Origin: a virus
Length of the DNA stretch: 64,000 nt
Reading direction: 5' to 3' (one strand)
IMG/VR virus record: IMGVR_UViG_3300050821_018050
Span: 95,806 to 159,805 of that record
Every line of letters begins with the position of its first letter. The stretch's first letter is position 1. The notes beneath the pieces were generated by a model. The model did no database searches and was not told where the DNA came from. It saw only the letters and a program-made list of their open reading frames with translations. The position numbers and the translations under genes are program-made. Positions 22,956 to 23,088 of the stretch are shown in pieces.

Positions 22956-23055
22956 AAAAGTTAGGCGCTAGAGTCCGCTTGGATTGGTCTGCCACCCAAT
23001 AACTTCGAAAGGGGGATTAAGAGGTGAGGTAGCAGACTTGCACTCCAGCGCCTAC
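22956..23055 (-). ncRNA. candidate ~100-nt structured RNA (rod with internal loop)
   Basis: 13-bp closing stem 22962-22974/23042-23054 and ~10-bp inner stem, both completed by G-U pairs only on the minus strand; starts at the predicted TSS and ends in UUUU. Confidence 0.65.
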
Positions 23056-23059
23056 AATA

Positions 23060-23088
23060 AGAATACCATGGATTTGGCAGAAAAGCAA
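23060..23088 (-). promoter_or_regulatory. sigma70-type promoter at the head of array B
   Basis: TTGCTT-17 nt-TATTCT with extended -10 TG. Confidence 0.6.

Follow-up and report, generated by a model that had tools for sequence, protein, structure and literature searches.

The divergent spacer ahead of the tail-fibre operon of an uncultured phage holds a real, orphan and strongly folded stem-loop element, which stands at the head of a leftward early operon and is most simply explained as a 5′ leader structure. The phage is represented by an IMG/VR virus record of 159.8 kb with a completeness rating of 99%, and the stretch analyzed here, referred to as the window, comprises the final 64 kb of that record. 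A megablast search of GenBank phages gave no match and no close relative of this phage. The same phage is present in sequencing run SRR7094834.

Tentatively, the element is taken to be the 5′-terminal stem-loop in the leader of a short, leftward-transcribed early operon, where it could serve as a stabilizer, a processing site or a leaky terminator. Were this so, it would be an ordinary but well-defined 5′ protective or processing structure, of interest as a structured exception in a phage where most early messages appear to be leaderless. If the element is instead the gene of a small RNA (sRNA), it would represent one more orphan phage regulatory RNA. Only a decoy carrying the anti-Shine–Dalgarno (anti-SD) sequence of 16S rRNA would constitute a new principle, and the tests described below make such a decoy unlikely for this sequence.

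The divergent spacer and its stem-loop

The features of the spacer and its borders are listed in Table 1. To the right lies the tail-fibre/baseplate operon, whose first gene starts at the ATG called on a Logan contig of the same phage and not at TTG 23114, which was taken from a mechanical list of open reading frames. On its left side, a series of small minus-strand genes without assigned functions begins with one for a 120-aa protein. Upstream of the spacer, this strand is antisense to the tail genes, so the promoter that serves the leftward series has to lie within these 286 bp. A scan of our own found just two promoter-like sites on the minus strand of the spacer, designated P1 and P2.

Table 1. 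Features of the divergent spacer and its borders, in window positions
Feature	Position	Strand	Description
Divergent spacer	22831–23116		286 bp; holds the stem-loop element
First tail-fibre gene	ATG 23117	+	214 aa; heads the tail-fibre/baseplate operon rightward of the spacer
Late-promoter-like motif ACCTAATATT	23100–23109	+	Ends 7 nt before ATG 23117; back to back with P1
Promoter-like site P1	23060–23088	−	−35 TTGCTT (23083–23088), 17-nt spacer, TGn-extended −10 TATTCT (23060–23065); predicted start ~23053–23054
Structured RNA element	22962–23054	−	93 nt; outer stem of 13 bp, asymmetric internal loop of 4/12 nt, inner stem of 11 bp, apical loop of 29 nt
Outer stem	23042–23054 with 22962–22974	−	13 bp, one G-U
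Inner stem	23027–23037 with 22987–22997	−	11 bp, two G-U
Apical loop	22998–23026	−	29 nt, mostly unpaired by prediction; 16S-tail-like motif (23018–23027) and five-C run (23011–23015)
Four-U tract	22956–22959	−	Begins 2 nt past the outer stem; a weak intrinsic terminator at most
Open 56-codon frame	22984–23154	+	Internal TTG at ~23038, with SD-like GAGGTGAGG 8 nt before it
Open 37-codon frame	~22830/22833–22943	−	TTG start at 22943, AAAGG 6 nt upstream; its stop and the 120-aa gene's ATG overlap
Possible second promoter P2	22852–22880	−	TTAGCT-17-TAGAAT, 8/12; from our own scan; shortly before the 120-aa gene
First called gene of the leftward early operon	22468–22830	−	120 aa, family phrog_12889, unassigned function

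The stems, the loop and the UUUU behind them, as read from the sequence and from folding, are exactly those of the preliminary description of this DNA. The minimum free energy of the element is −40.9 kcal/mol, as against −27.4 ± 3.5 kcal/mol for dinucleotide shuffles (z = −3.89), and none of 200 shuffles folded as low. Autonomous folding is retained in the full 255-nt leader, where pair probabilities are near 1 in the stems and the loop is largely unpaired. The element also forms an island of 54% G+C between flanks of 40% and 29%. The nested stem structure is genuine and is unlikely to have arisen by accident, though it is not unique in strength within the genome: in a scan of all 160 kb, the element, which is present in one copy, was among the approximately nine lowest-energy 100-nt loci on its own strand, with a G+C-adjusted z of −4.0.

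Strong hairpins were also seen in coding DNA of this phage. Perfect hairpins of 11–16 bp lie on the minus strand in the coding frames of 1588 aa (~9320–9345) and 195 aa (~58826–58870). The first has a local folding energy of −43 kcal/mol (z = −3.4) and the second one of −44.7 kcal/mol (z = −5.0), both as low as that of the element.

The minus strand had been regarded as fixed by the G-U pairs. These do favor it, as each of the three non-Watson–Crick positions in the stems is a G-U pair on that strand. They do not settle the matter, however, since the plus strand of the element folds at −36.2 kcal/mol and the difference of 4.7 kcal/mol is within one standard deviation (5.6) of strand differences across the genome. 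The assignment to the minus strand is carried by the G-U pairs, the promoter and the U tail in combination, and by no single one of them.

Transcription signals and the early operon

Where a sigma70 promoter had been proposed at the base of the stem, there is indeed a promoter-like site with its predicted +1 at that base. It is weak, with 7 of 12 consensus matches plus the TG extension, and went unflagged by a stricter consensus scan. Sites of the P1 class occur at a density of 0.64 per kb per strand, and the chance of finding one in a 20-nt slot that starts transcription at the stem base is roughly 1%. The −10 of P1 ends 6 nt before the stem, so the stem would form the 5′ end of an RNA only if P1 is used, the start itself being predicted. 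The sole tRNA-like gene of the phage lies outside the window (genome positions 54760–54854, minus strand; called by ARAGORN as Ala, tgc, 95 nt) and directly behind a TTGACA-17-TGn-TATCCT promoter, with little or no 5′ leader. Its −10 resembles that of P1, which lends the latter some credibility.

The four U that follow the outer stem are present as described, and a terminator scan placed them below its threshold, with no terminator called. By an intrinsic terminator we mean here a compact, G+C-rich hairpin with at least five U among the eight positions immediately behind it; this element has four U behind a 2-nt gap, and its stem encloses 67 nt. With just four U and no called terminator, read-through is favored over the production of a discrete, terminated RNA.

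The arrangement behind P1 differs from that found elsewhere in the genome. In about 9 of 15 other strong sigma70-type promoters examined, an ATG follows the −10 by 6–8 nt, from which leaderless early mRNAs are predicted. Examples of this type are found at window positions 6079–6107 on the minus strand, at genome positions 86485, 87983 and 139629 on the minus strand, and at 9279, 20085 and 21551 on the plus strand. The P1 unit is an exception: what follows the promoter is a stem-loop, not a start codon, and the 120-aa gene has its ATG ~225 nt beyond the predicted +1.

The rightward side of the spacer has a signal of its own. Copies of CCTAATATT stand immediately before several other gene starts of the genome, which belong to late-type genes, and in each of the two nearest relatives the homologous tail gene has a related CCTAATCTT in front of it (loci L024, ~1410–1420, and L025, ~2158–2170). 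Judged from its sequence and placement, the ACCTAATATT/CCTAATATT/CCTAATCTT motif looks like a lineage-wide late promoter that would give rise to leaderless or near-leaderless late mRNAs.

A search of 5.8 billion proteins gave no relative of the 120-aa product with more than 44% identity. The protein is a member of a widespread small phage family (59 relatives, at 32–50% identity) with the invariant motifs SYRGYY and FTGYKGG. The AF2 model of the protein has a pLDDT of 90 and a pTM of 0.83. Foldseek found no match to the model in the PDB, the best VIA Z was 3.6, and there was no hint in these comparisons of a partner that binds RNA; a PADLOC search with the protein was likewise negative. The 37-codon frame that precedes this gene was not called by the public gene caller on the contig of the same phage. 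Its translation has a hydrophobic core and a basic C-terminal tail, and the frame is a possible microprotein gene, perhaps for a small membrane protein. If it is real, the element lies 18 nt upstream of a microprotein gene.

Under the leader reading, P1, as a weak promoter with an extended −10, would start the RNA at the first base of the 13-bp stem and thereby give it a highly stable stem-loop as its 5′ terminus. Besides the 120-aa gene, the transcript is predicted to cover some five small genes, the set extending from 22830 to ~21640. A hairpin at the very 5′ end of an RNA is a known requirement for protection against decay that depends on the 5′ end, and a terminal stem-loop with no unpaired 5′ tail would be expected to protect the mRNA in the manner of the ompA type. 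The two coaxial helices and the asymmetric internal loop between them might also be processed by RNase III, in the style of the T7 early genes, and the four-U tail could stop part of the transcripts, which would leave a stable RNA of about 95–100 nt as a by-product.

A leader or attenuator for the leftward array of small genes was among the options in the preliminary description, and it is the one that best fits the anatomy and is preferred here; the transcription start, the read-through and the stabilizing or processing role are inferred. The argument draws on the stable, autonomous fold, which starts no more than a base or two from the predicted +1. It draws also on the long 5′ UTR of this unit, where, unlike in the leaderless units, a protective 5′ hairpin would be needed, and on the loop, which lacks the target preference expected of a regulator that acts in trans. 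Several points speak against the leader reading. A simple, short hairpin would suffice for the purpose, and the open, C/U-rich loop of 29 nt is left unexplained. The element and the gene downstream of it are absent from both nearest relatives. Moreover, P1 is weak and P2 lies between the element and the gene, so that the element could be a separate unit. Finally, hairpins of comparable stability are found inside coding regions of the same genome.

The loop and the alternative readings

The likeness of the loop to the 3′ tail of 16S rRNA was the most striking claim made for this element, and it had been described as a match to UCACCUC(C)UUA with one deletion. That match is literally present: the loop carries 10 of the 11 bases of the motif as it occurs in the E. 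coli-type tail, and the first of these bases closes the inner stem. It is, however, no more than is expected by chance. Matches to the 11-mer with at most one edit occur at two loci in the window, as compared with 1.8 expected from shuffles. When the composition of the loop itself is shuffled, 0.4% of the sequences contain such a match, a condition that was set post hoc. In addition, the single deletion falls inside CCUCC, the part of the 16S tail that pairs with GGAGG, and this core is absent from the loop.

Pairing strength was consistent with this outcome. The ribosome-binding sites of the phage are mostly AAGGA and AGGAG, and the loop pairs with AAGGA, AGGAG, AAGGAG and GGAGG-type sites 1–4 kcal/mol more weakly than does the 16S tail. 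At 293 predicted start regions of the phage, the mean pairing energy of the loop was −6.93 kcal/mol, as compared with −7.43 ± 0.30 kcal/mol for shuffled loops of matched composition. The number of start regions at −12 kcal/mol or below was 24 for the loop and 27.8 ± 5.8 for the shuffled loops (n = 293, phage only). Through its five-C run, the loop pairs with sites of the AGGGGGA type at about −13 kcal/mol. In a search of the whole genome, the best duplex of the loop (−31.5 kcal/mol) fell on the antisense strand of a small gene, and no significant complementarity was found in the downstream operon, in the downstream 11 kb or in its start regions. Among the phage targets examined, the loop thus shows no target preference of the kind expected of a regulator that acts in trans.

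These results bear directly on the proposal that the RNA copies the 16S tail and sequesters SD sequences in trans, so that translation would globally shift toward leaderless phage messages. The proposal can appeal to the 10 of 11 bases, to the rarity of such a match among shuffles of the loop and to the largely leaderless state of the operon-first genes of the phage. Against these stand a match at chance level across the window, the loss of CCUCC, pairing with AAGGAG, GGAGG and similar sites that is weaker than that of the tail it would imitate, and no enrichment over shuffled loops at the phage start regions. The internal genes of the phage also use SD sequences and would be hit as well, and a weak promoter would be unlikely to supply as much RNA as a stoichiometric decoy requires. 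A full-text search of the literature found no described phage RNA that mimics the 16S tail. The proposal is not supported for this sequence and is the least probable of those considered. Scarcely more probable is an account in which the motif simply complements a plus-strand ribosome-binding site, an SD of the GAGGTGAGG type that would serve the internal TTG of the 56-codon frame. GAGGTGAGG is indeed the complement of the “anti-SD” motif, the motif and its spacing are evident in the sequence, and no stop interrupts the frame. However, no plus-strand promoter lies upstream, the frame runs across the late promoter motif and overlaps the start of the tail gene out of frame, and the nested stems are left unexplained. 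A third, narrower idea, in which the loop of an early sRNA blocks purine-rich ribosome-binding sites of the host while the mostly leaderless operon-first genes of the phage are exempt, is only slightly less improbable than these two; if true, it would amount to an RNA-based means of biasing translation in favor of leaderless phage mRNAs.

Two broader alternatives deserve more weight, and both are considered less probable than the leader reading. In one, which is the main rival but doubtful on balance, the element is a stand-alone early sRNA of ~100 nt that runs from P1 to the U tract and acts in trans, its C/U-rich loop pairing with purine-rich sites of mRNAs from the host or the phage. Such pairing would be the generic mechanism of C-rich loops, as in RsaE/RoxS, LhrC and RNAIII, and is independent of any likeness to 16S rRNA. 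It accords with the promoter-like site, the helix that closes the 5′ and 3′ ends, the U tail, the predicted single-stranded loop with its five-C run and affinity for AGGGGGA-type sites, and the precedent of another RNA gene (the tRNA-like one) directly behind a similar −10. Since the leader reading does not explain the large open loop, the sRNA stays in contention, and P2, which would uncouple the element from the operon, strengthens its case a little. The case is weakened by a tail of four U behind a stem that closes a 67-nt insert, which is untypical of an sRNA terminator. It is also weakened by the want of an outstanding target (the best genomic match being antisense to a gene), by pairing at 293 phage start regions that is no better than that of shuffled loops and by the lack of conservation in relatives. 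In the other alternative, which is unlikely, the element has no function as RNA: it would be an inverted repeat that works at the level of DNA, as a protein-binding or replication-related site in the divergent region between early and late genes, or else a fortuitous structure or decaying remnant. This would account for an element that is unique to this phage and missing from its relatives, for the ability of both strands to fold well with no significant difference between them, and for the other strong hairpins in coding DNA. It is less easily reconciled with three G-U pairs at three non-Watson–Crick positions on the very strand that has the promoter and the U tail, or with an island of 54% G+C in a spacer of 29–40%; arms 67 bp apart would also be unusual for a protein site.

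Conservation and comparison with known systems

No family of Rfam 15 reached its gathering score anywhere in the window. When a 301-nt region was searched with E values up to 10, only a chance match to a microRNA on the other strand was obtained, and ARAGORN found no tRNA or tmRNA in the window. The suggestion of a 6S-like or Y-RNA-like decoy is not sustained, given the absence of an Rfam match and an element of the wrong size and shape.

Close relatives of the two flanking proteins were found neither in IMG/VR nor in JGI metagenomes. The tail-protein queries began at 23126 and so omitted three N-terminal residues, with no effect on the outcome. The two nearest relatives are phages of ~155 kb, in which a UvsX-like protein is 60% identical and the first tail gene has a homologue with 30–39% identity. 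The element is missing from both, whether sought by BLAST, by a single-sequence covariance model or by inspection of the syntenic spacer before the tail gene, and the 120-aa gene is missing from both as well. At 21 other loci, which comprised the neighborhoods of distant homologues of the 120-aa gene and tail-fibre loci, the covariance model gave nothing credible; one match of 17.7 bits in a G+C-rich coding region was dismissed as chance. The element, like the gene that follows it, is part of the variable early region of one phage.

Scans with 22-mers and 20-mers of the loop found none in IMG/VR and none in 185,579 species genomes. A scan of metagenomes returned one match, which extends to 24 identical bases and lies in a chromosomal spacer of a Dehalococcoidia, upstream of a holA-like gene (contig Ga0209636_10090519, positions 1581–1604, minus strand, of locus L031). 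At that locus, the 24 bases are paired with a G-run. No similarity was seen in the flanks, the sequence is not conserved in 11 related genomes, and the match is probably due to chance (rough estimate, 0.03–0.1).

Among known systems, the c4 RNAs of P1 and P7 and the CI RNA of P4 resemble the element in that they are structured RNAs at the head of a phage operon. The element differs from them in having no Rfam match and no significant complementarity to start regions in the 11 kb downstream. With the sRNAs RsaE/RoxS, LhrC, RNAIII and Cuckoo/CcsR it shares a C-rich pyrimidine motif in a single-stranded loop. Unlike these, it has a single loop, no repeated motifs, no canonical terminator and no conserved relatives, and it shows neither an Rfam match nor pairing at phage start regions that is better than that of shuffles. 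Such differences lower the likelihood that it is a member of the C-rich-loop family, although a similar mode of action is possible for it all the same.

Other parallels come from bacterial and phage mRNAs. The early mRNA of T7 contains RNase III sites of the R0.3 and R1.1 type, whose apical loops are small. These sites are built from a lower stem, an asymmetric internal loop and an upper stem, about 24 bp in all, with which the predicted 13 + 11 bp and 4/12 loop of the element are compatible, and the element is also placed between a putative early promoter and the first early gene. It is without sequence similarity to the T7 sites and has an apical loop of 29 nt. Stabilizers at the 5′ terminus are known as well, for example in the 5′ UTR of the ompA type and in the early RNA of SP82. 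As compared with these, the element, with its 93 nt, two helices and 29-nt open loop, is far larger than protection needs, and its 5′ end is a predicted one. What it would share with them, if P1 is used, is a stable hairpin that starts at the predicted 5′ end of a leadered mRNA, or no more than a base or two from it, and lies upstream of the first ribosome-binding site.
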